The position numbers and the translations under genes were made by a program. The notes under the pieces are model-generated. The model was not told where the DNA came from and made no database searches. It worked only from the letters and a program-made list of their open reading frames with translations. Shown here piece by piece: positions 6,712-38,964 of a DNA stretch of 64,000 bases. Within the stretch, counting starts at the first letter, position 1. The number at the start of each line of letters is the position of its first letter. The DNA lies in assembly GCF_044324785.1 (NCBI RefSeq), contig NZ_CP172127.1; one strand, given 5' to 3'. Origin of the DNA: Escherichia coli. GTDB taxonomy: Bacteria > Pseudomonadota > Gammaproteobacteria > Enterobacterales > Enterobacteriaceae.

Positions 6712-8241
6712 ATGTTACTACCCTGGCTAATATTAATTCCCTTTATCGGCGGCTTCCTGTGCTGGCAGACCGAACGCTTTGGCGTCAAGGTGCCGCGCTG
6801 GATCGCGCTGATCACCATGGGATTGACGCTGGCGCTGTCGCTGCAACTGTGGTTGCAGGGCGGTTATTCACTGACGCAATCCGCCGGAATTCCGCAGTGG
6901 CAGTCTGAATTCGACATGCCGTGGATCCCGCGTTTTGGTATCTCTATCCATCTCGCCATTGACGGGCTATCGCTGCTGATGGTCGTGCTGACCGGTCTGC
7001 TCGGTGTGCTGGCGGTACTCTGTTCGTGGAAAGAGATCGAAAAATACCAGGGCTTCTTCCACCTCAACCTGATGTGGATCCTGGGCGGCGTTATCGGCGT
7101 GTTCCTTGCCATCGACATGTTCCTGTTCTTCTTCTTCTGGGAAATGATGCTGGTGCCGATGTACTTCCTGATCGCACTGTGGGGGCATAAAGCCTCTGAC
7201 GGTAAAACGCGTATCACGGCGGCAACCAAGTTCTTCATTTACACCCAGGCGAGTGGTCTGGTGATGCTGATCGCCATCCTGGCGCTGGTTTTTGTTCACT
7301 ACAATGCGACTGGCGTCTGGACCTTCAACTATGAAGAGCTGCTGAATACGCCAATGTCTAACGGCGTGGAATATTTGCTGATGCTGGGCTTCTTCATCGC
7401 ATTTGCGGTGAAAATGCCGGTGGTTCCGCTGCATGGCTGGCTGCCGGATGCGCACTCCCAGGCTCCGACCGCCGGTTCCGTTGACCTCGCGGGGATCTTG
7501 CTGAAAACTGCCGCTTACGGTTTGCTGCGTTTCTCCCTGCCGCTGTTCCCGAACGCGTCGGCAGAGTTCGCGCCAATCGCTATGTGGCTGGGTGTTATAG
7601 GCATCTTCTACGGTGCGTGGATGGCCTTCGCCCAGACCGATATCAAACGTCTGATCGCCTACACCTCGGTTTCCCACATGGGCTTCGTACTGATTGCTAT
7701 CTATACCGGCAGCCAGTTGGCCTACCAGGGCGCGGTAATCCAGATGATTGCGCACGGCTTGTCGGCGGCGGGTCTGTTTATTCTCTGCGGTCAGCTTTAT
7801 GAACGTATCCATACCCGCGACATGCGCATGATGGGCGGTCTGTGGAGCAAGATGAAATGGCTGCCAGCACTGTCGCTGTTCTTTGCGGTGGCAACGCTTG
7901 GGATGCCAGGCACCGGTAACTTCGTCGGCGAATTTATGATTCTGTTCGGCAGCTTCCAGGTTGTCCCGGTGATTACCGTTATCTCTACCTTTGGGCTGGT
8001 CTTTGCATCTGTTTATTCGCTGGCGATGTTGCATCGCGCTTACTTCGGTAAAGCGAAAAGCCAGATTGCCAGCCAGGAACTGCCAGGGATGTCGCTGCGT
8101 GAGCTGTTTATGATCCTGTTGCTGGTGGTGCTGCTGGTACTGCTGGGCTTCTATCCGCAGCCGATTCTGGATACCTCGCACTCCGCGATTGGCAATATCC
8201 AGCAGTGGTTTGTTAATTCCGTTACTACTACAAGGCCGTAA
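6712..8241 (+). CDS. nuoM: NADH:quinone oxidoreductase subunit M, 509 aa
   Basis: ORF track; antiporter-like membrane subunit. Confidence 0.95.
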   Translation: MLLPWLILIPFIGGFLCWQTERFGVKVPRWIALITMGLTLALSLQLWLQGGYSLTQSAGIPQWQSEFDMPWIPRFGISIHLAIDGLSLLMVVLTGLLGVLAVLCSWKEIEKYQGFFHLNLMWILGGVIGVFLAIDMFLFFFFWEMMLVPMYFLIALWGHKASDGKTRITAATKFFIYTQASGLVMLIAILALVFVHYNATGVWTFNYEELLNTPMSNGVEYLLMLGFFIAFAVKMPVVPLHGWLPDAHSQAPTAGSVDLAGILLKTAAYGLLRFSLPLFPNASAEFAPIAMWLGVIGIFYGAWMAFAQTDIKRLIAYTSVSHMGFVLIAIYTGSQLAYQGAVIQMIAHGLSAAGLFILCGQLYERIHTRDMRMMGGLWSKMKWLPALSLFFAVATLGMPGTGNFVGEFMILFGSFQVVPVITVISTFGLVFASVYSLAMLHRAYFGKAKSQIASQELPGMSLRELFMILLLVVLLVLLGFYPQPILDTSHSAIGNIQQWFVNSVTTTRP

Positions 8242-8247
8242 ATCGCC

Positions 8248-9705
8248 ATGACAATAACTCCACAAAACCTGATCGCACTGCTACCGTTGCTGATCGTCGG
8301 CTTGACGGTGGTGGTTGTGATGCTCTCCATTGCGTGGCGACGCAATCATTTCCTCAACGCTACGCTCTCGGTTATTGGGCTTAACGCGGCGCTGGTTTCG
8401 CTCTGGTTTGTCGGCCAGGCGGGCGCTATGGACGTTACGCCGCTGATGCGCGTTGATGGTTTCGCCATGCTTTACACCGGGCTGGTATTGTTGGCGAGCC
8501 TCGCCACCTGTACTTTCGCCTACCCGTGGCTTGAAGGCTATAACGACAACAAGGACGAGTTCTACCTGTTGGTGTTAATTGCCGCCCTGGGCGGGATCCT
8601 GCTGGCGAATGCCAACCATCTGGCGTCTCTGTTCCTCGGTATCGAACTGATCTCTTTACCGCTGTTTGGCCTGGTCGGTTACGCTTTCCGCCAGAAACGT
8701 TCGCTGGAAGCCAGTATCAAATACACCATCCTTTCTGCCGCAGCGTCTTCTTTCCTGCTGTTCGGTATGGCGCTGGTGTATGCGCAGTCTGGCGACCTGT
8801 CGTTTGTCGCGCTGGGCAAAAACCTCGGCGACGGTATGCTCAACGAGCCGCTGTTGCTGGCAGGTTTCGGCCTGATGATTGTTGGCCTCGGCTTCAAACT
8901 CTCTCTGGTGCCGTTCCACCTGTGGACGCCAGACGTATACCAGGGCGCGCCTGCGCCGGTTTCCACTTTCCTGGCGACGGCGAGCAAAATCGCTATCTTC
9001 GGTGTGGTGATGCGTCTGTTCCTCTACGCACCGGTGGGTGACAGCGAAGCGATTCGCGTAGTACTGGCGATTATCGCCTTTGCCTCCATCATCTTCGGTA
9101 ACCTGATGGCGTTGAGCCAGACCAACATCAAACGTCTGCTCGGTTACTCATCTATCTCTCACCTCGGCTATCTGCTGGTGGCGCTGATTGCGCTGCAAAC
9201 TGGCGAGATGTCGATGGAAGCGGTAGGGGTTTACCTGGCCGGTTATCTGTTCAGCAGCCTCGGCGCGTTCGGCGTGGTCAGCCTGATGTCCAGCCCGTAT
9301 CGTGGCCCGGATGCTGATTCCCTGTTCTCTTACCGCGGACTGTTCTGGCATCGTCCGATCCTCGCGGCGGTGATGACGGTGATGATGCTGTCTCTGGCCG
9401 GTATCCCGATGACGCTGGGCTTTATTGGTAAGTTCTACGTGCTGGCGGTCGGTGTCCAGGCGCACTTGTGGTGGCTAGTGGGTGCCGTGGTTGTCGGTTC
9501 GGCAATCGGCCTCTACTACTACCTGCGCGTGGCGGTGAGCTTATACCTGCACGCCCCGGAACAACCGGGTCGCGATGCACCATCAAACTGGCAGTACAGC
9601 GCGGGCGGTATCGTGGTGCTGATCTCTGCACTGTTGGTACTGGTGCTGGGTGTATGGCCACAACCGCTGATTAGCATTGTGCGGTTAGCAATGCCGCTGA
9701 TGTAA
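8248..9705 (+). CDS. nuoN: NADH:quinone oxidoreductase subunit N, 485 aa
   Basis: ORF track; last gene of nuo operon, followed by terminator. Confidence 0.95.
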
Positions 9706-9726
9706 GCTGTCAGTTCGTAAGTCAGA

Positions 9727-9758
9727 AAGCCGCCGACATGTTCGGCGGTTTTTTTTGG
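9727..9758. terminator. Rho-independent terminator between convergent nuoN (+) and yfbM (-)
   Basis: GC-rich hairpin ccgccga-catgt-tcggcgg followed by T8 on plus strand. Confidence 0.8.
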
Positions 9759-9771
9759 TGCCCTGACACCA

Positions 9772-10275
9772 TCACCCAACAATAACCGTCAGCGCATGAT
9801 TCCCTTGTCGCAGCATACGTCGATACGCACTAATCAGCTTTTCCATATCAAGCATGATCGAAGCAAAGAGTTGTCCCTCTAACTCTTCTGAAAAAGTCAC
9901 TCCCGGATAAATCTCCATTTCATTGAGTCGCTTAATGGAAAATTTTTTACGCAGCTCACTTCGATCAAGAGCTTCCAGTCGCTCGATTGTCGCGGCTAAC
10001 TCCTGATTCCAGGTCAATCCCAGGAAGCCATCTATGCCATCTTCGAGGCTGTGTTCACCAAGCACGGCACGACTCAGCGGATCATTCTTCGCGGGATCAA
10101 AAGCAGAGGTGCCTGTCAGGCCAAAATGTAAAAAATCCCAGCGTTTATCAATATCCAGTCGGCGTAATCCTGAAAGCGTGTCATGAATATTGTCCATTAA
10201 GGGTTTTTCAGTAGACTCAAGCAGTTGGTTAATCTTTTCTGAGTCAATTTCTGCAAAATAGCCAATCATTCCCAT
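9772..10275 (-). CDS. yfbM: DUF1877-family protein YfbM, 167 aa
   Basis: ORF track; translation recognised as YfbM. Confidence 0.85.
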   Translation of the reverse strand: MGMIGYFAEIDSEKINQLLESTEKPLMDNIHDTLSGLRRLDIDKRWDFLHFGLTGTSAFDPAKNDPLSRAVLGEHSLEDGIDGFLGLTWNQELAATIERLEALDRSELRKKFSIKRLNEMEIYPGVTFSEELEGQLFASIMLDMEKLISAYRRMLRQGNHALTVIVG

Positions 10276-10377
10276 TTTATTTTCCTCCGTTGAATTTCAT
10301 GTTTCGCATCTTAAAACAGACGAGGGAAAATAAAATGTACATGTCGCTTTTTCTGGACCCGCCTCGAGAAATTTTTA

Positions 10378-11196
10378 TTATTTACTGTTGTATAACAAAG
10401 TTATAACCCCATCCACTACCTGAGCCATTTTCTGATAATTCAATCTGTCTGCGGTATCACCGGGCAAGTGGTATTGTTTATTACGATAAAAAGCGGTGTC
10501 GGTAATCATTACGGCGGGAATATCGTGTTGCCAATAATTAAGGTGATCAGAGAAATCAATACCGGGAATAAACCCTGGGGCATTCATAGAATAAACAGAT
10601 AAATCCCGGGATGACAACAATGCCGCTTTTACCTGACGAACGGCGTTGATATCCTGCATTCTGCCGACCACGGCAATAAAGTCTCCCCGATCGGGATAAA
10701 GCCAGGACATTGCCGGGTAAGGGTAATCCTGACTACCAGGCGTAGAGTCGTAATAGCCAATCATCTCCAGCGCTATCATTAATCTCACTGGACGCTCAAG
10801 CGAAGCTGCATGTACCGCGCTCCCCATTTCATCGCTACGAAAGAAGGGCGGTTCTTCCGACGCATAGGCGACCAGCTGCACGCCAGTTTTCGGTGCTTGC
10901 TGCTGTAACAAACGTGCCAGTTCGAGTAATCCTGCCACGCCGCTAGCGTTATCATCCGCGCCCGGCGTATAGGTCAATTGTTCATTTTCATAACTACTGA
11001 CAGAGTCATAGTGCGCACCAATAATAATCAGTGCTCCATCGGCAGGACCATAATCAGCAACAATGTTTTTGTAGGGGCCACCCGTAATGGGGACGTCCTG
11101 CGCGGTAACTCTGGCACCGCTACTGACAAAGACCTCTTTTATATACTCTGCGGACCTATTCAGATTATCAATATTGTCGGCACTACGTGGATGCAC
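10378..11196 (-). CDS. yfbL: M28-family zinc aminopeptidase-like protein YfbL; first canonical start is GTG at 11196 (272 aa), reading frame stays open a further 54 codons upstream (to about 11358) encoding a signal-peptide-like segment with no ATG/GTG/TTG
   Basis: Translation contains the M28 peptidase region (HYDS, GADDNASG, EEPPFF); upstream in-frame extension KFTYKKITPLCFISLLLSLPFIIFYQPWVNALPPTPRHASPEQLEKTVRYLTQT read manually. Confidence 0.7.
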   Translation of the reverse strand: MHPRSADNIDNLNRSAEYIKEVFVSSGARVTAQDVPITGGPYKNIVADYGPADGALIIIGAHYDSVSSYENEQLTYTPGADDNASGVAGLLELARLLQQQAPKTGVQLVAYASEEPPFFRSDEMGSAVHAASLERPVRLMIALEMIGYYDSTPGSQDYPYPAMSWLYPDRGDFIAVVGRMQDINAVRQVKAALLSSRDLSVYSMNAPGFIPGIDFSDHLNYWQHDIPAVMITDTAFYRNKQYHLPGDTADRLNYQKMAQVVDGVITLLYNSK

Positions 11197-11738
11197 AGTT
11201 TGTGTAAGATAACGAACTGTTTTTTCTAATTGCTCAGGACTTGCGTGTCGGGGCGTTGGCGGTAATGCATTGACCCAGGGTTGGTAAAAAATAATAAAAG
11301 GAAGTGATAGTAGTAATGATATAAAACAAAGAGGTGTTATTTTTTTATATGTAAATTTTTAATAAAAGGCGTTATTTCATTATTATTTATAATGAGTTAT
11401 GAATGTTTATTTTATTACGGTTGGTAGGAATATAAAAAAAGTATTTTTTTCAGTTGGTTCGCTATTTTAAAAAGGAATTCATATGAGAAATAAAAAATAA
11501 TTATGTTATTTATTGGTAGATTGAATTGACAGGGTGCAGAAATCTGAGGGTAAGAAAAGTCAGCAACAACAATCCACTACATCAACAGACCAGCAATCGC
11601 GTGCCGCGATACGCTGGAAATAACCGCAGATTGAACTGGTGGATGGTGTGACTGGCATCAGTCAGTGATGACTTTTTAGCAAACTATGTTCGACCAGTCA
11701 GCATATTTGCTGATTGGTCGAATTGATTAACAATAATG

Positions 11739-23118: not shown

Positions 23119-24767
23119 TTGGGCCGATACTGAATCAGCACCAGACGCTCCTGACGATCGATGGCATCTGCGGGCGGAATGGCGAGACTGTTGATATCTT
23201 CATCGCGGTCAACCGAAAGCACGAGTGTAATAATCCCCTCCTGACGATGTTGATTAAGCCAGTTTGCGAACTCATCACCGCTGACAAATCTCCCTTTCGC
23301 ATCCGGATAATTAAGGCCGTATTTCAACTCACCTGTCTGACGATACATGATGATGTCATCGCGTTGCAGGCTCCATGCCAGACCTGCGGCAACGCCCACG
23401 CTGTCAGTAAGAATATAGCGGCTTGGCTGCAGTGATTCTTGTGTCATCTCGACAAAAAATTGCGGATGTTTTCCTTCCAGGACTCTGTCAGGAATTGAAA
23501 ATCCTACCAGCAACGTCAGCCCCAGCGGGCAAAGCGCGGCAAAAGACCAGGTCTTTTCGACGTTTGTTAAGGTGTACCAGCCGAAAAATGCCCATAGCGA
23601 AAAAATCGACCAGGCACAGAAGACTTTATAGCTCTCGAAGGTTTGCCACACCGGCGTGTTCATTGGTCCCCAGGGGGAGACCACAAACGTAGCAATAATG
23701 CCAGTGACGCCAAAAGCGATGTTAATCCAGCCATTAATCCGCAACGCCAGAGGATTATTTTTTGCTGCCAGCAAAGCGTAATGCGCCATCAGCATTGCCA
23801 GAGGTGCAAAGCAGGAAAGAATATAGGTGGGCAATTTGCCTTTGGCGACGGAGAAAAACAGCAGCGGCATTACCGCCCAGCTCAATAAATAGACGGTTGC
23901 GGAATGCTTGCGGTTTTTCCAGCCTGTGTACAGTGCTCCGGGGAGTAATCCCAGCCACGGCAGGCTACCGGCAATGATGACCGGCAAGTAGTACCAGAAC
24001 GGAGCTCTATGCTGAGCATCATCCATTGCAAAGCGTTGAATATGCTCAACCCAGAAAAAATAGTGCCAGAAGTCAGGCTCCCGCTGCGCTATCGCCAGTC
24101 CCCAGGGGAGAACCGTCAGTACGCAACTGATAACCGCCAGCCAGCCGTAAATAAAGAGATCTTTCCAGCGTTTTTGCGTCGCCACCCATGGAAGCACGCT
24201 TAATACCGGCACGGCAAGGGCGAGAAAACCTTTGGTCATCACCCCCATGCCGCAGGTGATTCCCAGCAGTAAAAATCCGGCGCTTTTGCCTTTCCACGTC
24301 TGTGCCTGCATTGCCAGCCAGAAGCTGCACATTCCCGCCACCAGCCAGAATGCAATAAACGGATCGAGCACGGCATAAGTGCCGATGGCATAGACAATAA
24401 ACAATGAGAGATAAATTACTGTGGCGAGTAGAGCCAGACGTTTATCGCGCCATAAGCGCAGAGTAAACCAGGTCACCAGCGCGGCAGTTAACAGGGTCGC
24501 AAAGATAACGCCTGCCCGCACACCAAAGTTATTCGCGCCAAATAGCCATTGCCCAATGCTGTTAATCCAGTATCCGGCAATGGGTTTTTCGAAATAACGT
24601 AGCCCTAACAGATGGGGCACAATCCAGTCGCCGGATGCCAGCATTTCTCGACTGATTTCCGCATAACGCGTTTCATCGGGTTGCCATAGCAGACGTGTGC
24701 TGATCGGTAACAGGTAATAGCAGGCAATAAACGCGAAGAGGCCGATAAGGTAACGTACCGATTTCAT
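23115..24767 (-). CDS. arnT: Lipid A 4-amino-4-deoxy-L-arabinose transferase ArnT, 550 aa
   Basis: ORF track; polytopic glycosyltransferase. Confidence 0.95.
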
Positions 24768-25657
24768 CAGCGACTACCCGCAATTTGTTGGCAACCCAGC
24801 CAGCCTTCACGTCCGGCAATATTTCCGCGAACAACTTGCCCGAGCGGCAACGTCCCTGATAACAGTTCGCTTAAAGGGCAAAATGTCACGCCTTCCTGGG
24901 CTGCGCGTTTCAGGAGATCCACAAAATTATGCTGATAAGCGCAGCCTTCAACTTCTGCATGAATGGTATAAACCGGCGTGCCTTTATCTCGCAGGATGCG
25001 GTTGAGTAACCAACCGTTAAAATCTTCTGCTTTCACATCCCGACCAATCACTTCATCCCAGGTGGGTAAGGTCACCGGAATTTGCGCAGTGCCAGGGTTT
25101 CCTGATTCGAGCAGTGGACGAAACGGCATGGCCCCACGACAATCGCTGTTGTAGCGCAAATGGAACGCTTCTTTTGCTTCGATCACCTGCTGGTCGGCAC
25201 GCCAGCCAGCGGCTGCGGAGCAGGTTACCGGTTGGCCGATAATTTCTTCCAGGGTGCGAAGGCCGCGTGCGATATCGTCGACCATTGTTTGCCGATCCCA
25301 GTTACTGCTATGGGCTTGCCAGGCATGGTGATCCCAGGCGTGCAGGCCGACTTCGTGGTGTTTAGCCGCTTCACGAATGATATCGGCATTGGCATGACCA
25401 ATCTCTTTACCTGGCCAGGCCGTACCTGCCAATAAAATATCCCAGCCATAAAGCGATGCTGCGTTTGAGCGCAGCATCTTCCACAAAAACTGTGGCTTCA
25501 CCAGTCGCCAGAGATGGCGGCCCATATTGTCCGGGCCGACGCTGAAAAAAATGCTGGCCTGAATATTATGCTTACTCAAGATTTCCAGCAGACGCGGCAC
25601 GCCTTCACGGGTGCCACGAAAGGTATCGACATCAATGCGTAAGCCTACTTTGGTCAT
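24767..25657 (-). CDS. arnD: Undecaprenyl-phosphate 4-deoxy-4-formamido-L-arabinose deformylase ArnD, 296 aa
   Basis: ORF track; polysaccharide deacetylase fold. Confidence 0.95.
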
Positions 25658-27635
25658 GATGGTTTATCCGTAAGCTCGACGGTGCGCAAGAAGAAATCCA
25701 GCGTTTCGTCGATGGTTTCCTGCATATCAATTTTCGGCTCCCAGTCCAGGCAGCGGCGGGCATTGCGGATGCTTGGTTTACGATGCTCTACGTCCTGATA
25801 TCCTTTGCCGTAGTAGCTGCTACTTTCGACAACGCGAAAGCCCGCAAACGGTGGGAAGTGATGGCGCAGCGGATGTTTTTCGAAACTCGCCAGCAGCATC
25901 TCGCCCAGTTCCTCAATGCTCGCTTCGTTCTCAGGATTGCCAATGTTGATAATTTCGCCGTCGCAGCGATTTCCCGCATTTTCGATAATGCGGTACAACG
26001 CCTCGATACCATCGCGAATATCAGTAAAGCAGCGTTTTTGTTTTCCGCCATCAATTAGCTTAATTGGTGAACCTTCTACCAGATTGAGAATGAGTTGCGT
26101 AATAGCGCGGGAGCTGCCGATTCGTGCTGCATTAAGGTTATCCAGTCGTGGTCCCATCCAGTTAAACGGCCGGAAGAGGGTGAACTGTAAACCCTCTTTT
26201 TCGCCATAGGCCCAGATCACCCGATCAAGTAATTGTTTTGACACCGAATAAATCCAGCGTGGTTTATTCACCGGGCCGACGATTAAATTAGAATGGTCCT
26301 CATCGAAGTATTTATCGCTACACATCCCATAAACTTCTGAAGTTGACGGGAAGATGATTCGCTTACGGTACTTCACGCAGTAGCGGATAATGCGCAGATT
26401 CTCTTCAAAATCGAGTTCAAATACGCGCAACGGGTTGCGGGTATATTCAATCGGCGTGGCTATCGCCACCAGCGGCAAGACGACATCACATTTTTTGACG
26501 TGATACTCAATCCATTCGGAATGAATACTGATATCGCCTTCGACAAAGTGAAAATGCGGATGATTCAGAAAACGGCTTATCGCATCGCTGCCAATATCCA
26601 GACCGTAAACTTCATAATGATCTTCGCGCAGCAGGCGTTCTGTCAGATGGTTGCCAATAAAGCCATTCACCCCGAGGATGAGTACCCGGGTACGGCGTCG
26701 GGCGGTGCAGGCAGGCTGGCTATTCAAGCGTGAACCTTGCACCAGGCCCAGCGTCTGCGCTAACTGCGAGCCCTGCATAGTAATGCCGTCGCCCGCCTGT
26801 CCGGTGACGATTTCCAGCGCGCCATCGCCACAGGCAATCAGCAGTGGTGCAACAGAAATCACGCTCCCCGGCTGTGCTTTGCTGGCATGAGGATGAACAC
26901 GCGACGACCAGACGGTGAATTTCTGATTGCCAACATAGCTGAAGGCACCCGGCCACGGATCGGCAACGGCACGCACCATGTTGTGCAGTACGGATGCCGG
27001 CTTATGCCATTCGAGGAAACTGTCTTCCGGTGTTCTGCGACCAAAACAGGTGGCTTCGTTTTCGCGCTGGGCGATTTCCAGAATATTACCGTGTTTAATG
27101 GCGGGTAATGTCTGCTCCAATAGCTGGCGCGCGGCATGGCACAATTTATGATGCAGCGTAATGGCGATATCGTCTGGCGCAATGGCAACGCGCAGTTGTG
27201 CCACAATGGCCCCGGCATCGGCACGTTTCACCATTCGGTGCAATGTAACGCCAGTTTCCGTTTCACCGTTCACCAGCACCCAGTTCAGCGGCGCGCGACC
27301 ACGATATTTTGGTAACAGCGAACCATGCAGATTAAATGCACCTCTCGGAGCGAGCTGCAAAATCTCATCGCAAATAAGATGGCGATAATAAAAAGAGAAA
27401 ATCACCTCTGGTGATAGTTGGGCAATGCGTTCCACCCACAGCGGATGATTAACGTTATCCGGCGCATAAACTGGAATGCCTCTTTCCGCTGCCAGTCGGG
27501 CAACCGAACCATAAAAGGCTTTTTCACCGGGGTTATCAGTATGGGTAAAAATGGCGCTAATTTCGTAACCGGCAGACAGCAGGGCTTCAATACCGAGGCA
27601 TCCCATATCGTGGTAGGCAAAAACGACGGTTTTCA

Positions 27636-27636
<1 letters not shown>
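25654..27636 (-). CDS. arnA: Bifunctional UDP-glucuronate decarboxylase / UDP-Ara4N formyltransferase ArnA, 660 aa
   Basis: ORF track; N-terminal formyltransferase and C-terminal SDR domains. Confidence 0.96.
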
Positions 27637-28607
<971 letters not shown>

Positions 28608-29765
28608 TTATTGTCCTGCGAGTTGCTGAAGGGCTGTGATGACGCGGTCGGCATCGGCGGTGGTCATATCCGGGAACAGCGGCAACGAACAGATGCGTTC
28701 GCTATTCCATTCGGTATTCGGTAACGACAGCGTGGGAAAACGCTCGCGATAATATTTTTGTGTGTGAGCGGCGCGGAAATGTAACCCGGTACCAATGCCT
28801 CTTTCTTTTAACGCTTCCATCAACGCATCGCGACTGATACCACAACGTTGTTCATCGACACGAATAATAAACAGATGCCAGGCGTGAACGTGCGGCCAGG
28901 CGGGAAGGCTTAATGGCTGAAAGGGGAGAGCTGCCAGTGCTTGCTGATATTGCTGGGCAATTTCGCGCCGACGGGTGTTGAGGTGCTCTAATTTGGCTAA
29001 CTGGGTCAGGGCAATCGCGGCGTTAATATCGGTCAGATTATACTTATAGCCCGGCGTTAAGACTTCAGCTTGCGGTGCACGGCCCCAGGTTTGTCTGTCA
29101 TAGGCATCGACACCCAGACCGTGAAATTTTAGCATCCGTAGCTGGCGGGCAAGGTTTTCATTATCAGTAACAATCAGGCCACCTTCCGCACAGGTAATAT
29201 TTTTGATGGCGTGAAACGAAAAAATAGCGGTACCTTTTGCGCCAATATGTCGGCCTTTGTAATACGTACCGACGGCATGGGCAGCATCTTCGATAACTGC
29301 GATGCCGTAACGTTCGCCAATGGCGCGAATGGCGTCAATATCTGCTGGCGCACCGGCATAATGCACCGGAATGATGGCTTTAGTGCGTGGCGTAATGGCT
29401 GACTCGATCGCTTCAGGCGTGACCATCAGCGTATCGCGGTCGACATCCACCATTACCGGCGTTGCACCCAACAAGGAGATCATATTGAGGGTTGAAACCC
29501 AGGTCAGGGAAGGCGTAATCACTTCATCGCCCTTGCCAATTTCCAACGCCATTAGCGTGATATGCATTCCGGCGGTGGCTGAACTGACCGCGATGGCATG
29601 CTGATTTCCCGTCAACTGGCAAAAGGCTTGTTCAAGCGCCTGATTCTTCGGACCGGTTGTGATCCAACCGGATTCGAGAACCTCTTTAACTGCAGCGAGT
29701 TCCTCCACGCCCATTGCTGGTCGCGAAAAAGGCAAAAATTCTGACATTGCTTTTCCTTCCGCCAT
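28608..29765 (-). CDS. arnB: UDP-4-amino-4-deoxy-L-arabinose aminotransferase ArnB, about 385 aa
   Basis: Track ORF 28608..29780; start set to ATG for [16 protein letters not shown]-dependent DegT family. Confidence 0.9.
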
Positions 29766-29845
29766 TGAATACCTGTCCACTTATATTTGCTATAAAGAGT
29801 GTTGTGTATATTTTGCCATTTGGAGCAAAATTTTAAGGATAGAAT

Positions 29846-29862
29846 ATTAACTTAACCTTAAG
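29846..29862 (-). promoter_or_regulatory. Candidate PmrA (BasR) box upstream of arnB
   Basis: Minus strand reads CTTAAG-gttaa-GTTAAT (direct repeat, 5-nt spacer) about 80-95 nt upstream of arnB start. Confidence 0.55.
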
Positions 29863-30054
29863 AAACTAATATTAGACGTAAATATTGAAATTTTTATATT
29901 TTTTCTTATTTAGGCTTTGCATTTGGCAAAATTTTGAGGCATTTTGCCGGCATCGCAGGATTTTTAATATTACACCAACTGCTAATTATCGCCAGAAATG
30001 TCGCTCAATTTCACGGTAATTGTCTGGTTGCGCTTGTCTATAGGTGGAGTTTAC

Positions 30055-30657
30055 GTGTTAGCTTTTTGCCGCTCTTCGTTGAAGTCAAAAAAATATTTCA
30101 TCATTTTACTGGCGCTCGCTGCAATTGCCGGACTGGGTACTCATGCCGCCTGGAGTAGTAATGGTTTGCCACGTATCGACAATAAAACACTGGCCAGACT
30201 GGCACAGCAGCACACGGTTGTCGTTTTGTTTCGCCATGCTGAACGTTGCGATCGTTCAACCAATCAATGCTTGTCAGATAAAACAGGTATTACGGTCAAA
30301 GGTACCCAGGATGCCCGTGAACTGGGCAACGCTTTTAGCGCTGATATCTCTGATTTCGATCTTTATTCCAGTAATACCGTCCGGACCATTCAGTCGGCGA
30401 CCTGGTTTTCAGCGGGTAAAAAGCTGACGGTAGATAAACGACTTCTTCAATGCGGTAATGAGATTTATAGTGCAATTAAGGACTTACAAAGCAAAGCACC
30501 TGATAAAAATATCGTTATTTTTACCCATAATCATTGCCTGACATATATTGCTAAAGATAAGCGTGATGCGACATTTAAACCTGATTATCTGGATGGTTTA
30601 GTCATGCATGTGGAAAAAGGCAAAGTTTATCTGGATGGGGAATTCGTTAACCACTAA
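30055..30657 (+). CDS. ais: Lipopolysaccharide core heptose(II)-phosphate phosphatase-like protein Ais, 200 aa, GTG start
   Basis: In-frame GTG for (M)[13 protein letters not shown] within track ORF 29998..30657; histidine-phosphatase RHAER motif. Confidence 0.8.
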
Positions 30658-30695
30658 ATTTTCAATCTGACAGCCAGTAATGGCTGTCATCATTG

Positions 30696-31121
30696 TTACA
30701 GAAGACCTTTCAAACGTAACGTTTTTCGGGTGGCGACATTCAAATCATAATGCACCAGATCTTCAGGTTTTACCCACGCGTAGTCCTGAAACTCTTCGTT
30801 TATTTTCACTTCTCGGTTGGCAGAAACGCAGTCAAAAATCAGGTAAATCATATAAATCTCTTCCTTGCGACCATCTGCATACGTCTTGGTGCGAATATCA
30901 TCGCTGAAGGTCCACGGCGTGATTTCTGTCAAAAGCAGCTGTTCTCCCAGTTCTTCGCGAATTTCGCGGCGTAGTGCCTCTTCAATTCGTTCGCCAGGCT
31001 CCACGCCGCCACCCGAAAGCGCCCATTGACCGGGGAAAACGCCGCGATCGTCGGCCATTTTACACAGCAAATAAGCACCATCATTTTGAATCAAAGGGCA
31101 TACAATAGTCCGTTGTCGCAC
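30696..31121 (-). CDS. nudI: Nudix pyrimidine deoxynucleoside triphosphate diphosphatase NudI, 141 aa, GTG start
   Basis: Start (M)[11 protein letters not shown] inside track ORF 30696..31217; Nudix box [23 protein letters not shown]. Confidence 0.85.
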
Positions 31122-31399
31122 GGGGATATTCCTTATAAATAAAAAGAAACCATGAGAATACGGTAACTCAGAAATATGTGAAAGTGACAGTAATCTCTTT
31201 TGCGATGATAACTGCACTTATTATTATTTTTGTGTGTATCGATAAAGTGTGTTTATTTTTTCGGCGTTTAATTATTTAAGAAGTATTTAGTTACAATAAG
31301 TGACTAGATCCCTTTTTTCGCTCATTGAATCCTCTGTGCCAGGCAGTACAATCCCGCAGCTTTGGGAATTTTGATTTATTGCTTGTGGGAGAGGGGAAA

Positions 31400-31942
31400 A
31401 TGAAAAAAATTGCGCTAGCAGGTCTGGCCGGAATGCTGTTGGTTTCTGCATCGGTCAATGCAATGAGCATCAGCGGCCAGGCGGGTAAAGAATACACCAA
31501 TATTGGTGTCGGTTTTGGGACTGAATCAACGGGCCTGGCGTTAAGCGGTAACTGGACACATAACGACGACGACGGTGACGTCGCGGGCGTGGGGCTGGGG
31601 TTGAATCTACCTCTCGGGCCGTTAATGGCGACCGTTGGCGGAAAAGGCGTTTACACCAACCCGAATTACGGCGATGAAGGTTATGCCGCAGCGGTAGGAG
31701 GTGGTTTGCAGTGGAAAATTGGCAACAGCTTCCGTTTGTTTGGCGAGTATTATTACTCCCCGGATTCGCTCTCCAGCGGTATTCAAAGTTATGAGGAAGC
31801 GAATGCGGGCGCGCGTTACACCATTATGCGTCCAGTGAGTATTGAGGCGGGCTATCGCTACCTGAATCTGTCGGGTAAAGATGGTAACCGCGACAACGCC
31901 GTGGCTGACGGCCCGTATGTTGGGGTTAACGCCAGTTTCTGA
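31400..31942 (+). CDS. yfaZ: Outer-membrane beta-barrel protein YfaZ, 180 aa
   Basis: ATG for MKKIALAGLAGMLLVSASVNA (signal peptide) within track ORF 31325..31942; C-terminal Phe. Confidence 0.85.
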   Translation: MKKIALAGLAGMLLVSASVNAMSISGQAGKEYTNIGVGFGTESTGLALSGNWTHNDDDGDVAGVGLGLNLPLGPLMATVGGKGVYTNPNYGDEGYAAAVGGGLQWKIGNSFRLFGEYYYSPDSLSSGIQSYEEANAGARYTIMRPVSIEAGYRYLNLSGKDGNRDNAVADGPYVGVNASF

Positions 31943-32041
31943 TCCCTTCCGGCGCGGCATTCTGTCGCGCCATTCAGTTTCTTACTACGCCTCATCTCCC
32001 TTTGCGTTATAGTGATTCGATAACAAAAGCAGGAGATAACC

Positions 32042-33244
32042 ATGTTAAAAGTGGAAATGCTATCCACCGGGGATGAAGTGTTACACGGGCAAATCGTTGA
32101 CACTAACGCTGCCTGGCTGGCCGATTTTTTCTTTCATCAGGGGTTGCCATTATCTCGCCGCAATACGGTGGGGGATAACCTTGATGACTTAGTCACCATT
32201 CTTCGCGAACGTAGTCAGCACGCCGATGTGCTGATCGTTAACGGCGGGCTGGGACCGACCAGTGATGATTTAAGCGCACTCGCCGCTGCGACAGCAAAAG
32301 GTGAAGGCCTGGTGTTGCATGAAGCCTGGCTCAAAGAGATGGAACGCTATTTCCACGAACGTGGACGAGTAATGGCACCGAGCAACCGTAAACAAGCGGA
32401 GCTACCTGCCAGTGCTGAATTTATCAGTAACCCGGTAGGCACCGCCTGTGGTTTTGCCGTGCAGCTTAATCGTTGCCTGATGTTCTTTACCCCCGGCGTA
32501 CCGTCAGAATTTAAGGTGATGGTCGAGCACGAAATCCTGCCGCGCCTGCGCGAGCGTTTTTCTTTACCACAGCCGCCGGTTTGTCTGCGTTTAACTACCT
32601 TTGGTCGTTCGGAAAGCGATCTGGCACAAAGCCTGGACACTCTACAACTGCCGCCGGGGGTAACAATGGGCTATCGCTCCTCAATGCCTATCATCGAACT
32701 GAAACTCACCGGACCGGCAAGCGAGCAACAGGCGATGGAAAAACTGTGGCTGGACGTTAAACGTGTTGCCGGACAGAGCGTGATTTTCGAAGGCACCGAA
32801 GGACTGCCCGCGCAGATCAGTCGCGAATTGCAAAACCGCCAGTTCAGCCTGACGTTGAGCGAGCAATTCACCGGCGGTTTATTGGCTTTGCAACTTTCTC
32901 GCGCAGGTGCTCCATTGCTGGCGTGTGAAGTGGTTCCTTCACAGGAAGAAACCCTGGCGCAAACGGCGCACTGGATTACAGAACGGCGGGCCAACCATTT
33001 TGCCGGGCTGGCACTGGCTGTTTCTGGTTTCGAGAACGAACATCTCAACTTTGCGCTAGCCACGCCAGACGGCACTTTCGCTCTGCGTGTGCGTTTCAGC
33101 ACTACGCGCTACAGCCTGGCTATCCGTCAGGAAGTGTGCGCAATGATGGCACTGAATATGCTGCGCCGTTGGTTAAACGGCCAGGACATCGCCAGTGAGC
33201 ATGGCTGGATTGAGGTTGTTGAGTCCATGACCTTATCTGTCTGA
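32042..33244 (+). CDS. yfaY: CinA-like (MoCF-biosynthesis domain) protein YfaY, 400 aa
   Basis: ORF track; translation recognised as YfaY. Confidence 0.88.
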   Translation: MLKVEMLSTGDEVLHGQIVDTNAAWLADFFFHQGLPLSRRNTVGDNLDDLVTILRERSQHADVLIVNGGLGPTSDDLSALAAATAKGEGLVLHEAWLKEMERYFHERGRVMAPSNRKQAELPASAEFISNPVGTACGFAVQLNRCLMFFTPGVPSEFKVMVEHEILPRLRERFSLPQPPVCLRLTTFGRSESDLAQSLDTLQLPPGVTMGYRSSMPIIELKLTGPASEQQAMEKLWLDVKRVAGQSVIFEGTEGLPAQISRELQNRQFSLTLSEQFTGGLLALQLSRAGAPLLACEVVPSQEETLAQTAHWITERRANHFAGLALAVSGFENEHLNFALATPDGTFALRVRFSTTRYSLAIRQEVCAMMALNMLRRWLNGQDIASEHGWIEVVESMTLSV

Positions 33245-33463
33245 TTCCGCCACTCTGTGCCGGTTTACTGCACCGGCACATCCCCCCTCCGGCAAAATTT
33301 GTCCAACCTGTTGTACTCAATAAGAAAAAATCCGTGCGCTAATTCACAAATTTGTGCGTAATTTCTCCAGTCCGCTGGACGAGGAGCGGGATTTGATGCG
33401 CTTCACAATTTTACTCCCCCTGAGCAACGAGACTGATTCCAGTATCTAAGACTGGAGTCCAGT

Positions 33464-34246
33464 ATGTTGGAATCAAGCAAAGTTCCCGCCCTGACACGGG
33501 CTATTGATATTCTCAATTTGATTGCCCGCATTGGCCCCTGTAGTGCTGCGACGATCATTGACACATTAGGGATCCCTAAAAGCACGGCCTATTTGCTGCT
33601 TAATGAACTCAGGCGTCAGCGTTTTCTTAGCCTTGATCACCAGGAAAATTTTTGTTTGTGGACCAAGCTGGTGGAGCTTTCCGGTCATGCGTTAAGCAAG
33701 ATGGATCTCCGGGAACTGGCTCGACCGCGTTTGACGCAACTGATGGATACCACCGGGCTGTTATGTCACCTGGGGATTATTGATAACGGCAGCGCTTATT
33801 ACATTTTGAAAGTGGAGTCATCAGCCACTATCAGCGTGCGTTCCCATGAAGGAAAAAGCCTTTCGCTTTATCGCTCTGGAATAGGTAAATGCCTACTTGC
33901 CTGGCAACCTGCAGCTGTACAGCAAAGTATTATCGAAGGGCTGGTCTGGGAGCAGGCGACACCCACAACGATTACTCATCCACAGCAACTTCACGAAGAA
34001 CTGGCGCGTATTCGCCGCCAGGGCTGGAGCTATGACAACGGCGAAGATTACGCCGATGTCCGTTGTGTCGCTGCGCCGGTGTTTAACGCCAATAACGAGC
34101 TTACCGCTGCGATCTCGGTGGTCGGTACCCGCTTACAAATCAATGAAGAATACCGTGATTATCTGGCGGGCAAGGCCATTGCCTGCGCCAGGGATATTTC
34201 ACGTCTGTTGGGATGGAAAAGTCCCTTTGACTTACAGGCCTCATAA
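33464..34246 (+). CDS. rhmR: IclR-family transcriptional regulator of L-rhamnonate catabolism, 260 aa
   Basis: ORF track; N-terminal HTH and IclR effector domain; precedes rhmDTA. Confidence 0.88.
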
Positions 34247-34260
34247 CAATGGAGAACATC

Positions 34261-35466
34261 ATGACCCTACCAAAAATCAAACAGGTTCGCGCCTGGTTTA
34301 CTGGCGGTGCGACAGCAGAAAAAGGCGCTGGCGGCGGTGATTATCACGACCAGGGGGCGAATCACTGGATAGACGATCATATTGCCACCCCGATGAGTAA
34401 ATACCGCGATTATGAGCAGTCACGCCAGTCATTTGGCATTAACGTTCTTGGCACGTTGATTGTTGAAGTCGAAGCAGAAAACGGCCAGACCGGATTCGCC
34501 GTTTCGACAGCCGGTGAAATGGGCTGTTTTATTGTCGAAAAACACCTTAACCGTTTCATTGAGGGTAAATGTGTCAGTGATATCAAACTGATCCACGATC
34601 AAATGCTCAATGCCACCCTGTATTACTCCGGCTCTGGTGGCCTGGTGATGAACACGATTTCCTGTGTCGATCTGGCTCTGTGGGATCTGTTCGGCAAAGT
34701 GGTCGGGCTTCCGGTTTATAAACTTTTAGGCGGCGCAGTTCGTGATGAGATTCAGTTCTACGCCACAGGTGCGCGTCCGGATCTGGCAAAAGAGATGGGC
34801 TTTATCGGTGGCAAAATGCCGACGCACTGGGGGCCACATGATGGCGATGCGGGGATCCGCAAAGATGCCGCTATGGTCGCGGATATGCGTGAAAAATGCG
34901 GTGAGGATTTCTGGTTAATGCTCGACTGCTGGATGAGTCAGGACGTGAACTATGCCACCAAACTGGCCCACGCTTGCGCGCCCTATAACCTGAAATGGAT
35001 CGAAGAGTGCCTGCCGCCACAGCAGTATGAAGGTTATCGCGAACTGAAACGCAACGCGCCAGTCGGAATGATGGTCACCAGCGGTGAGCATCACGGCACA
35101 CTGCAATCTTTCCGTACGCTTTCAGAAACCGGCATCGACATTATGCAGCCGGATGTTGGCTGGTGCGGTGGGTTAACCACGCTGGTGGAAATTGCCGCAA
35201 TCGCCAAATCCAGAGGGCAACTGGTGGTGCCGCACGGTTCGTCTGTTTACTCTCACCATGCGGTGATCACCTTCACCAATACGCCATTCAGCGAATTCCT
35301 GATGACCAGCCCGGATTGTTCAACGATGCGTCCGCAATTTGATCCGATTCTGCTTAATGAGCCAGTGCCGGTGAATGGTCGTATTCATAAATCAGTGCTT
35401 GATAAACCCGGTTTCGGCGTCGAACTCAATCGTGACTGCAATTTGAAACGCCCCTACAGCCACTAA
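34261..35466 (+). CDS. rhmD: L-rhamnonate dehydratase (enolase superfamily), 401 aa
   Basis: ATG for [13 protein letters not shown] within track ORF 34249..35466. Confidence 0.9.
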
Positions 35467-35522
35467 TCATTCCGGGCGTTGCTGTGACAACGGTAACGCC
35501 CACACATTCTAAGGAGCTTTTT

Positions 35523-36812
35523 ATGAGCACCGCTTTGCTTGACGCCGTGGTGAAGAAAAACCGTGCGCGTTTAATTCCGTTTATGTTGGCGCTGTATGTG
35601 CTGGCGTTTCTCGACCGTTCGAATATCGGTTTTGCCAAACAGACCTACCAGATTGATACCGGGCTGAGTAATGAAGCTTATGCGCTGGGAGCAGGCATTT
35701 TCTTTGTTGTATATGCGTTTCTGGGTGTTCCGGCGAATCTTTTGATGCGCAAACTGGGGGCAAGAACCTGGATTGGTACGACAACACTGCTGTGGGGATT
35801 TCTTTCGGCAGCCATGGCATGGGCCGATACTGAAGCGAAATTTCTGATCGTTCGTACTCTGCTTGGTGCTGCGGAGGCCGGGTTCTTCCCTGGTATGATT
35901 TATCTCACCTCGCAATGGTTTCCGCAGCGTAATCGCGCCAGCATTATGGGGTTGTTCTATATGGGCGCACCGCTGGCGTTAACACTGGGATCACCGCTTT
36001 CCGGCGCGCTGCTGGAGATGCATGGATTTATGGGGCATCCCGGCTGGTTCTGGATGTTTGTGATTGAAGGATTGCTGGCAGTCGGCGCTGGGGTATTCAC
36101 ATTCTTTTGGCTTGATGACACACCGGAGCAGGCACGTTTTCTGAGTAAACAAGAAAAAACGTTGCTTATCAATCAACTGGCAAGTGAAGAACAACAGAAA
36201 GTGACTTCTCGATTGAGCGATGCGCTGCGTAATGGCCGAGTCTGGCAACTGGCGATTATCTACCTGACCATTCAGGTGGCGGTTTACGGATTAATTTTCT
36301 TCCTGCCGACCCAGGTTGCTGCATTGCTGGGGACAAAAGTGGGCTTTACGGCGTCGGTGGTCACCGCCATTCCGTGGGTTGCGGCCTTGTTTGGGACCTG
36401 GCTTATTCCGCGCTATTCCGATAAAACCGGCGAACGGCGTAATGTCGCAGCGCTGACATTACTGGCGGCGGGCATTGGTATTGGTCTCTCCGGGCTGCTT
36501 TCTCCAGTACTGGCGATCGTAGCGCTGTGTGTTGCAGCCATCGGGTTCATTGCCGTGCAGCCGGTGTTCTGGACGATGCCGACACAACTTCTTTCCGGTA
36601 CGGCGCTGGCTGCGGGGATTGGTTTTATAAACCTGTTTGGTGCAGTGGGCGGGTTTATTGCCCCGATCCTGCGCGTGAAAGCAGAAACGTTATTTTCCAG
36701 CGATGCGGCGGGATTACTGACGCTGGCAGCGGTGGCGGTCATCGGTTCGCTGATTATTTTCACTCTGCGTGTAAATCGCACTGTTGCGCAGACCGACGTG
36801 GCACATCATTAA
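35523..36812 (+). CDS. rhmT: MFS L-rhamnonate transporter, 429 aa
   Basis: ATG for MSTALLDAVVKK preceded by taaggag RBS; track ORF starts 13 codons upstream. Confidence 0.88.
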   Translation: MSTALLDAVVKKNRARLIPFMLALYVLAFLDRSNIGFAKQTYQIDTGLSNEAYALGAGIFFVVYAFLGVPANLLMRKLGARTWIGTTTLLWGFLSAAMAWADTEAKFLIVRTLLGAAEAGFFPGMIYLTSQWFPQRNRASIMGLFYMGAPLALTLGSPLSGALLEMHGFMGHPGWFWMFVIEGLLAVGAGVFTFFWLDDTPEQARFLSKQEKTLLINQLASEEQQKVTSRLSDALRNGRVWQLAIIYLTIQVAVYGLIFFLPTQVAALLGTKVGFTASVVTAIPWVAALFGTWLIPRYSDKTGERRNVAALTLLAAGIGIGLSGLLSPVLAIVALCVAAIGFIAVQPVFWTMPTQLLSGTALAAGIGFINLFGAVGGFIAPILRVKAETLFSSDAAGLLTLAAVAVIGSLIIFTLRVNRTVAQTDVAHH

Positions 36813-36828
36813 ATAGTTAAGGAACACG

Positions 36829-37632
36829 ATGAACGCATTATTAACCAATCCCTTTAAAGAACGTTTACGCAAGGGCGAAGTGCAAATTGGTCTGTGGTTA
36901 AGCTCGACTACTTCTTATATGGCAGAAATTGCCGCCACTTCCGGTTATGACTGGTTGCTGATTGACGGGGAGCACGCGCCTAACACCATTCAGGATCTTT
37001 ATCACCAGCTACAGGCGGTAGCACCCTATGCCAGCCAACCCGTGATCCGTCCGGTGGAAGGCAGTAAATCGCTGATTAAACAAGTCCTGGATATTGGCGT
37101 GCAAACTCTACTGATCCCGATGGTCGATACTGCCGATCAGGCACGTCAGGTGGTGTCTGCCACGCGCTATCCTCCCTACGGTGAGCGTGGTGTCGGGGCC
37201 AGTGTGGCACGGGCTGCTCGCTGGGGACGCATTGAGAATTACATGGCGCAAGTCAACGATTCGCTTTGTCTGTTGGTGCAGGTGGAAAGTAAAACAGCAC
37301 TGGATAACCTGGACGAAATCCTCGACGTCGAAGGGATTGACGGCGTGTTTATTGGACCTGCGGATCTTTCTGCGTCGTTGGGCTACCCGGATAACGCCGG
37401 GCACCCGGAAGTGCAGCGAATTATTGAAACCAGTATTCGGCGGATCCGTGCTGCGGGTAAAGCGGCTGGTTTTCTGGCTGTGGCTCCTGATATGGCGCAG
37501 CAATGCCTGGCGTGGGGAGCGAACTTTGTCGCTGTTGGCGTTGACACGATGCTCTACAGCGATGCCCTGGATCAACGACTGGCGATGTTTAAATCAGGCA
37601 AAAATGGGCCACGCATAAAAGGTAGTTATTGA
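36829..37632 (+). CDS. rhmA: 2-keto-3-deoxy-L-rhamnonate aldolase (HpcH/HpaI family), 267 aa
   Basis: ORF track; translation recognised as RhmA. Confidence 0.92.
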
Positions 37633-37672
37633 TATCAAAGGCCCATGGGGATCGGCTGTGGGCCTGTGTTAA

Positions 37673-37846
37673 TTAGTGGTTATTCGCTGCCAGATCGGCT
37701 TCGCTTAGCTGGGTGGCCGCGAGCACCAGGTCACGATCAATGCCCTGTTCCAGCATGCGCAAAGCAATTTTAATGGCTTGTTCATGCATGCCTTCCTGCC
37801 AGCCAATTTGGTGTCCTTCCTGCCGTAGCCGTTCAGCAATAGTCAT
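37673..37846 (-). CDS. ypaA: Small protein YpaA, 57 aa, homologous to the C-terminal tail of RpnB (RpnS-like, DUF4351)
   Basis: Manual translation [60 protein letters not shown] near-duplicate of the rpnB 3' end; below the 60-aa track cutoff. Confidence 0.7.
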   Translation of the reverse strand: MTIAERLRQEGHQIGWQEGMHEQAIKIALRMLEQGIDRDLVLAATQLSEADLAANNH

Positions 37847-37858
37847 TAATCTCTCCTT

Positions 37859-38818
37859 TTAATAACAGTTCGGAATATCAGCATCAGTGAGTTGGGTTGT
37901 CGCCAGCACAATCTCACGTTCAAAGCCCTGTTCCAGCATGCGCAAGGCAATTTTAATGGCTTGTTCATGCATACCTTCTACTTTGCCTTTCTGCAAACCC
38001 TCCAACTTCCCCTCCTGCCAACCTTCAATCTTACCCTCCTGCCAGCCAATTTGATGCCCTTCCTGCCGCAGCCGTTCAGCAATAGTCATTAATCTCTCCT
38101 TTTGTAGTGGTGAACGTTCGGCAATCTCCTCAATAAAACGGGTGAAACGGGAGGTATCGCCGCATTGCAGCAGATAATTAAACAGCGTTTGTAGCTGGCT
38201 GTCATTAGTGAAGCCTCTAACCAAAAGCGTGGTGATCCTGTCGACCATACCGATTAAATCGCGGTCGCGAATATGCTTTTGAATCAGTTCAAGCAGAGCT
38301 ATACGCCGATGTTGCATGATCTCATCGTCAGGTACGATGGTGATATCCACCAACGGAAAAGCTTCGGTGTACAACTGCCGGGCAAGTTGCGGATCGTCAA
38401 ACTCATCCAGCCAGTTGAGTGAGTACGGGTAAGGCGAGGTTTCGCCATGATAAAACAGCAACGGCACCACCAGCGGGACTCTGTCATAGCCTTTGTCCAG
38501 GTGACGCTGCATGGCGGCAGTGGCATAGCGCATTAGCCGAAAAGCCATATTCTTTTCTGCAGAGCTTTGATGTTCAATCACGCAGTAGATATAACCGTCA
38601 CCGTCGCTGGTTTCCACGGACCACAAAACATCCGAGTAGTAAGCGCGTAAACTTTTTTCAATAAAACTGGTGGGTTCCAGGCGTAAGGTTTGCAGGTTAC
38701 AAAGCTTGCGCAGTGGTTCTGGTAAATGTATTTCGAGAAAATCCCGTGCGGTTTCGGGTGTGAACATAAAAGTTTTAAATACCGCATCATGCGGGGAGGA
38801 GGTTGTTGATTCGGTCAT
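37859..38818 (-). CDS. rpnB: Rpn-family (YhgA-like, PD-(D/E)XK) recombination-promoting nuclease RpnB, 319 aa in longest frame; true start may be the internal MFTPET methionine
   Basis: ORF track; transposase_31-like N-terminal domain; C-terminal GWQEG-K-x-EG repeats followed by an RpnS-like tail. Confidence 0.85.
37985..38060 (-). repeat. In-frame tandem peptide repeat ([23 protein letters not shown]) in the rpnB C-terminal region
   Basis: Plus strand shows reiterated ctcctgccagcc / cttccc units; translation shows repeated (W)QEGK(I/L)EG. Confidence 0.6.
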
Positions 38819-38964
38819 GGTTGTCCGTCACCTGATATTTATGATGACGCGACATTACGGTTATCCCAGGCCTTTGACATCTGCCAGTTTCAGCCTTTGC
38901 GAGACGTTTTCAGAGGAATTTTCACTGCGTTGCAACGCATACATTGGGCACGGAATCGTGTACG

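Follow-up and report, generated by a model that had tools for sequence, protein, structure and literature searches.

A single-base deletion in the yfbL start codon of an Escherichia coli lineage

The yfbM-elaD interval and the remnants of yfbK

The stretch of DNA analysed here, hereafter the window, comprises 64,000 nucleotides of an Escherichia coli genome (RefSeq assembly GCF_044324785.1, contig NZ_CP172127.1) and carries, in this order, nuoL-N, yfbM, yfbL, elaD, rbn, elaA/B, and then the men and arn genes. At 10378..11346 on the minus strand, ancestral codons 2-323 of yfbL and the stop codon form an intact, in-frame gene body, which specifies an M28-family metallopeptidase. The region is bounded by elaD (11739..12962, minus strand), which encodes a 407-aa ElaD/SseL-family deubiquitinase; this gene is intact in the window and annotated as a frameshifted pseudogene in strains Z1002, N3, O104:H4 2011C-3493, and CFSAN018748. 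The nearest complete genomes are locally 98.5-99.1% identical to the window. Over 14000..38900, strain N3 is the best match among complete RefSeq E. coli genomes (99.1% over 24.9 kb), with all others below 98.5%. Since even the best complete match reaches only 99.1%, the window lineage is poorly represented among finished genomes.

An earlier note on this DNA described some 380 bp between yfbL and elaD as strongly AT-rich and free of any credible open reading frame (ORF). The segment 11362..11738 is indeed 377 bp long and has a GC content of 34%, against 51.9% for the whole window, but strong AT richness is confined to 11349..11482 (20.9% GC); 11483..11668 (41.4% GC) consists of yfbK remnants. 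The AT-rich part is the 134-bp intergenic (promoter) region of the divergent yfbL and yfbK genes and is colinear with the 137-bp spacer of MG1655. A promoter scan returned three sites versus 3.0 in shuffled sequence, i.e., no excess, and we claim no promoter. Likewise, an Rfam scan of 9600..13300 yielded nothing near any gathering score and hence no known RNA in the intergenic region.

The yfbK remnants lie on the plus strand. The degenerate 5' remnant (11483..11608) retains the ATG at 11483..11485, runs into a stop after five codons, and aligns with nucleotides 1-132 of MG1655 yfbK with several indels. The 3' remnant (11629..11668) holds the last 13 codons of the gene, including the stop at 11666..11668 (…IELVDGVTGISQ*). 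Between them, at 11609..11628, lies the joint of an internal yfbK deletion of about 1.55 kb, where the BLAST alignment to the MG1655 locus (L002) breaks off at 5848 and picks up again at 7405; between the positions matching 11608 and 11629, MG1655 is 1556 bp longer than the window. Of yfbK, then, some 126 bp survive at the 5' end and 40 bp at the 3' end. A 41-codon ORF with a TTG start (11526..11651, plus strand) lies wholly within these remnants and crosses the deletion joint. Its counterpart in AST215 and other genomes carries an annotation as a 44-aa hypothetical protein (WP_276383610.1); the ORF is most likely a spurious gene call. An LldR binding peak reported inside K-12 yfbK is irrelevant to the window. 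A near-perfect inverted repeat at 11689..11723 (TTCGACCAGTCAGCA…TGCTGATTGGTCGAA) sits between the convergent yfbK and elaD stops and is conserved in MG1655, with 11689..11722 giving a reverse-strand BLAST match to the same MG1655 site. It is probably a shared bidirectional terminator that outlived the yfbK deletion.

The deletion junction suspected next to elaD is therefore real, in that about 1.55 kb of yfbK is missing relative to MG1655. Its proposed tie to the loss of the yfbL start does not hold. The junction lies about 260 bp from the yfbL start codon, and 2578 of 5426 complete E. coli genomes (47.5%) match contiguously across it. AST215, Z1002, and N3 combine it with an intact yfbL ATG, and because genomes with an intact ATG share the junction, it did not cause the start loss. 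Its distribution identifies the junction as an old polymorphism unrelated to that event.

Absence of yfbN, yfbO, and yfbP, which the earlier note had taken as a possible deletion in this genome, is not borne out as such. The yfbNOP block occurs in only 1013 of the 5426 complete genomes (19%), 985 of them at ≥99% identity, so that its absence is the majority state (81%) and K-12 is the unusual strain. In MG1655, yfbP-yfbO-yfbN occupy 1440..4000 of L002, and 9706..9771 of the window is the empty site. Such a pattern would be easier to reconcile with the block having been inserted recently in the K-12 group than with its loss from the window.

Loss of the G from the yfbL initiation codon

Translation of 10378..11400 and a codon-by-codon scan agree that the minus-strand yfbL frame is open from an in-frame TAA (11361..11359) to a GTG (11196..11194), with no ATG, GTG, or TTG among the 54 sense codons between them. 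As the earlier note had stated, and as the translation, the codon scan, and the ORF list all confirm, this GTG is the first canonical in-frame start; it corresponds to native Val52 and opens the longest canonical yfbL ORF (10378..11196, minus strand, 272 aa). The peptide encoded upstream of it, KFTYKKITPLCFISLLLSLPFIIFYQPWVNALPP, matches the one quoted earlier as a plausible signal peptide. The 54-codon open stretch is colinear with the N-terminus of the annotated 323-aa YfbL in four E. coli genomes; it is the native YfbL N-terminus, not a chance effect.

The alignment to K-12 and other E. coli strains called for by the earlier note locates the lesion. RefSeq yfbL is 972 nt long, encodes 323 aa, and starts with ATG in all four of AST215, MG1655, Z1002, and N3. 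These read CATATGAAAAAAATA at the start, and the window reads CATAT-AAAAAAATA. The difference is a 1-bp deletion of the G of the ancestral ATG, expected between 11347 and 11346, which leaves the AT at 11347..11348. A normal yfbL opens with the codons ATG AAA AAA ATA; the resulting A7 run (11340..11346), which takes in codons 2 and 3 plus the base that opens codon 4, directly follows the lost start and is unchanged in the window. Since the deleted base is part of the start codon, the reading frame beyond it is unaffected. With the G restored, the window gene is 972 nt long, colinear with the four intact alleles, and free of further lesions. Of the two possibilities raised previously, a rare start codon or a damaged 5' end, the second is thus the one that stood; the first finds no support in conservation.

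The deletion is real and is found in independent samples of the lineage. Single-base errors are frequent near homopolymers on some sequencing platforms, and an error of this kind beside the A7 run could in principle mimic the lesion. The same base is missing, however, from an ENA metagenome scaffold (L004) and a Logan contig (L005), which across 6.8 kb show one substitution (99.985% identity) and five substitutions (99.93% identity), respectively, relative to the window. The exact 272-aa GTG-start product that results from the lesion appears as a gene call on 170 contigs (180 blocks) of a public collection, these two among them, and an intact 323-aa version of the window's allele was not found in a collection of 15 billion proteins. 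A sequencing or assembly error is therefore an explanation of practically negligible probability. The window's exact allele is carried by no complete RefSeq E. coli genome, as judged by a 60-nt megablast query across the deletion whose sole match was AST215, with the G; the A-rich right flank of this query was apparently masked for seeding, so that the test works via the left flank only.

The stretch left without a canonical start encodes signal-peptide residues 2-27 (KKITPLCFISLLLSLPFIIFYQPWVNA; 11269..11346, minus strand). By inspection, it consists of an n-region with two lysines (KK), an 18-residue hydrophobic core (I4-F21) with an 11-residue Kyte-Doolittle mean of up to 2.57, and V-N-A before L28, i.e., it looks like a typical signal peptide with predicted cleavage after VNA. 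A lipoprotein signal was considered and rejected, as T-P-L-C is no lipobox and the K-12 allele lacks the Cys at this position. Further downstream, residues 95-317 match Pfam Peptidase_M28 (PF04389; E 2.4e-26, 93.1 bits versus a cutoff of 21.3). The sequence also matches the solved M28 aminopeptidases 2ek8 and 1amp, with residues 36-52 aligning to the N-terminal helix region of 2ek8. An intact yfbL thus starts with ATG and encodes an M28-family metallopeptidase of 323 aa, probably made with a Sec-type signal peptide that is cleaved off.

Prospects for expression of the altered allele

The G deletion keeps the yfbL frame open downstream and deprives it of a canonical initiation codon, leaving as potential starts only weak ones, namely, in-frame near-cognate codons or the GTG at codon 52. 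The codon scan placed the near-cognates at ATA 11340..11338, ATA 11322..11320, ATT 11295, and ATT 11292. The nearest of them to the lost start, a possible weak start, is the ATA at 11338..11340 on the minus strand, which is native Ile4. No Shine-Dalgarno-like motif (GGAG, GAGG, AGGA, or AAGG) occurs on the minus strand from 11480 to 11190. Near-cognate codons initiate in E. coli at about 1 to 2% of the AUG level, with a range of 0.02 to 3% across constructs (bioRxiv 10.1101/063800).

One way for yfbL to remain in use would be initiation at a rare codon, either the ATA at 11340..11338 or one of the inner ATA/ATT codons, to yield a low-level exported peptidase. The position of these codons, in frame within the signal-peptide region of an otherwise intact ORF, and their measurable activity in E. 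coli (bioRxiv 10.1101/063800) speak for this possibility. So does the choice of PGAP to start an allele with a lengthened A run at the homologous ATA, although this is an annotation decision and carries no translation evidence. Conservation points the other way, since all orthologs examined start with ATG and the ATA is merely native Ile4, which leaves no conserved rare start. The Shine-Dalgarno-like motif is missing, the expected output is 1 to 2% of AUG or below according to the same study, translation from the ATA would leave out both n-region lysines of the signal peptide, and the ATT codons lie deep within the hydrophobic core. Continued function from a rare codon is accordingly a distinctly unlikely outcome. 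A precedent for native non-canonical starts exists in infC and pcnB, for which AUU is the established native start codon (bioRxiv 10.1101/063800). The yfbL allele resembles these genes in having in-frame AUA/AUU codons near its 5' end. It differs in that its orthologs start with ATG and its near-cognates are internal Ile codons with no Shine-Dalgarno-like motif. We therefore reject an infC/pcnB-type rare start, as neither conservation nor the search for a ribosome-binding signal (11480-11190) spoke for one.

Restart at GTG 11196, giving a 272-aa cytoplasmic, unexported peptidase, is even harder to credit and seems highly improbable. This codon is the first canonical in-frame start and the one chosen by gene callers, and the Pfam M28 domain (residues 95-317) lies entirely downstream of it. 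Yet every allele has this GTG as an ordinary codon for an internal Val, it too lacks an upstream Shine-Dalgarno-like motif, and its product loses, besides the signal peptide, mature residues 28-51, among them the segment that aligns with the 2ek8 N-terminal helix region. Rescue by frameshifting or transcriptional slippage was likewise rejected, as the sole upstream start in another frame, ATG 11380, runs into a stop after two codons.

The canonical ATG at the homologous position in AST215, MG1655, Z1002, and N3, together with the lack, between the TAA at 11361..11359 and GTG 11196, of any canonical start that would preserve a functional N-terminus, marks the window gene as a probable start-loss pseudogene. 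Because the near-cognates are weak and devoid of a Shine-Dalgarno sequence, and a product from the GTG would be made with neither the signal peptide nor the first helix, the allele is very probably null or nearly null, in other words a young pseudogene. Loss of expression is what we infer from the sequence; the deletion behind it is observed directly. The perfectly intact remaining ORF is a point against a null allele, since some residual function may persist. Native yfbL likewise has no Shine-Dalgarno sequence, so its initiation rules were unusual from the outset, and near-cognate initiation at the ATA could yield a little YfbL. At best, then, the window would carry a very weakly expressed allele.

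Start-loss pseudogenes are an already known kind, to which the window yfbL would belong. It resembles the genes that PGAP annotates as frameshifted pseudogenes among the dispensable genes of E. coli and Shigella, in that one small lesion abolishes initiation and leaves the remaining ORF intact. It differs from them in that the lesion lies inside the start codon and no frameshift is visible downstream.

Recurrent lesions and decay of yfbL across E. coli

The yfbL start has been hit more than once. The G of the ATG is deleted on the window haplotype (the window, L004, and L005; 170 contigs and no complete genome) and again on a K-12-like haplotype that retains yfbK (L015-L021; 23 complete genomes). 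On this second haplotype, L015 is 99.06% identical to MG1655 and 91.97% identical to the window (about 8% divergent), with flanking bases that differ within 5 nt of the deletion. Judged by this divergence of the haplotypes, the two G losses are independent events. The proteins of the K-12-like alleles, P0036 and P0037 (L015-L021), come from identical start DNA and differ in 7 of the last 272 residues. Drift since an old deletion, recombination, or additional independent events could account for this pattern.

The A7 run itself gains or loses one A in other strains. It is lengthened to A8 on a Z1002-like background (L010, L013, and L024; 11 complete genomes), on two haplotypes with yfbK present (L014 and L027), and in an O104:H4 allele already deleted internally (L006); coverage of L027 is only about 2x, which makes its A8 weak evidence. 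It is shortened to A6 in L012, whose downstream protein is the same as that of L010; this allele is represented in no complete genome, a 78-nt query having returned no full-length exact match. Partial alignments are among those in the ≥99% identity bands obtained with the A8 and A6 queries against complete genomes, and no allele counts were taken from these bands. L011, whose start is covered by Ns, and P0038 and P0040, which are cut by contig ends, are uninformative on the start.

Established models of polymerase error include the realignment of a primer end on a homopolymer after misinsertion. The G that directly precedes the A7 run would for this reason be prone to deletion: an A may be misinserted for the G, the primer end may realign on the A7 run, and the G would be lost. 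The yfbL start emerges as a recurrent mutation site, and the window case as ordinary gene decay. Our search found no paper describing recurrent lesions at this start; few of the papers covered mention yfbL.

Homopolymer tracts also drive phase variation at contingency loci, e.g., the poly-G/C tracts of Neisseria, Haemophilus, and Campylobacter. Similar features of yfbL are a homopolymer at its extreme 5' end and the occurrence of A6, A7, and A8 in natural strains, with the A8 (L010 and L013) and A6 (L012) alleles sharing an identical 272-aa downstream product. The yfbL run is short, however, and slippage cannot restore the flanking G that the window has lost. With the run still at A7 and the lesion next to it, a reversible repeat-driven switch is rejected for the window.

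Decay of yfbL extends well beyond its start. The flanks of the gene are found in 5362 of the complete E. coli genomes, and its central 316 bp are found in 3310 of 5426, which means that about 38% lack the centre of the gene; neighbouring yfbM is full-length in 5355 of 5426 (98.7%). In O104:H4, O157:H7, and strain B, yfbL is annotated as a frameshifted pseudogene; 326 bp are deleted from its interior, and it has other indels besides. yfbL is thus dispensable in nature. Ratios of dN/dS between intact alleles range from 0.12 to 0.39. The codon changes private to the window lineage are three nonsynonymous and one synonymous, tiny counts that are compatible with relaxed constraint as weak evidence. 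More generally, genes seem to have decayed repeatedly throughout the elaD-yfbK-yfbL block.

Equivalent start-lesion alleles have been annotated in four ways, i.e., as a 272-aa protein from the GTG, a 306-aa protein from Met18, a 320-aa protein from an ATA, and a pseudogene. Pipelines disagree because a lesion inside the start codon leaves no visible frameshift downstream. For instance, the K-12-like G-deletion allele of O157:H16 Santai is annotated as a frameshifted yfbL pseudogene. The A8 allele of CFSAN018748 (NZ_CP028192.1; L024 1244..2206) is annotated as a 320-aa YfbL (WP_096217353.1) starting at an ATA formed by the final A of the run and the TA behind it; this is a pipeline-made non-canonical start that rescues a frameshifted gene. 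A start-codon lesion can evidently leave a frame fully open, and the correct call in the window is a start-loss pseudogene.

A benefit of losing YfbL can be imagined from phage resistance. Loss of function of nfrA, nfrB, or wecB confers resistance to phage N4, and a Droplet RB-TnSeq preprint adds yfbL and yfbO to this set (10.1101/2025.09.29.679331). In that work, Keio yfbL and yfbO knockouts of K-12 resisted N4, and plasmid complementation restored sensitivity (10.1101/2025.09.29.679331). Like these knockouts, the window has an inactivated yfbL, and it also has no yfbO; the knockout result comes from a preprint on a laboratory K-12 strain. By analogy, loss of YfbL may have been favoured by selection for resistance to N4-like phages, with the ATG-A7 start acting as a mutation-prone off-switch hit repeatedly across lineages. 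The routes of loss that such selection would account for comprise the G deletion on at least two haplotypes, the A8 and A6 changes, and the widespread 326-bp internal deletion. We regard this scenario as rather unlikely and favour ordinary gene decay for the window allele.

Altogether, the yfbL product is a periplasmic-type M28 peptidase, as yet uncharacterised, and E. coli has lost the gene again and again while keeping yfbM. If the natural losses also confer resistance to N4, these alleles would be ready-made isogenic contrasts for learning the role of YfbL.
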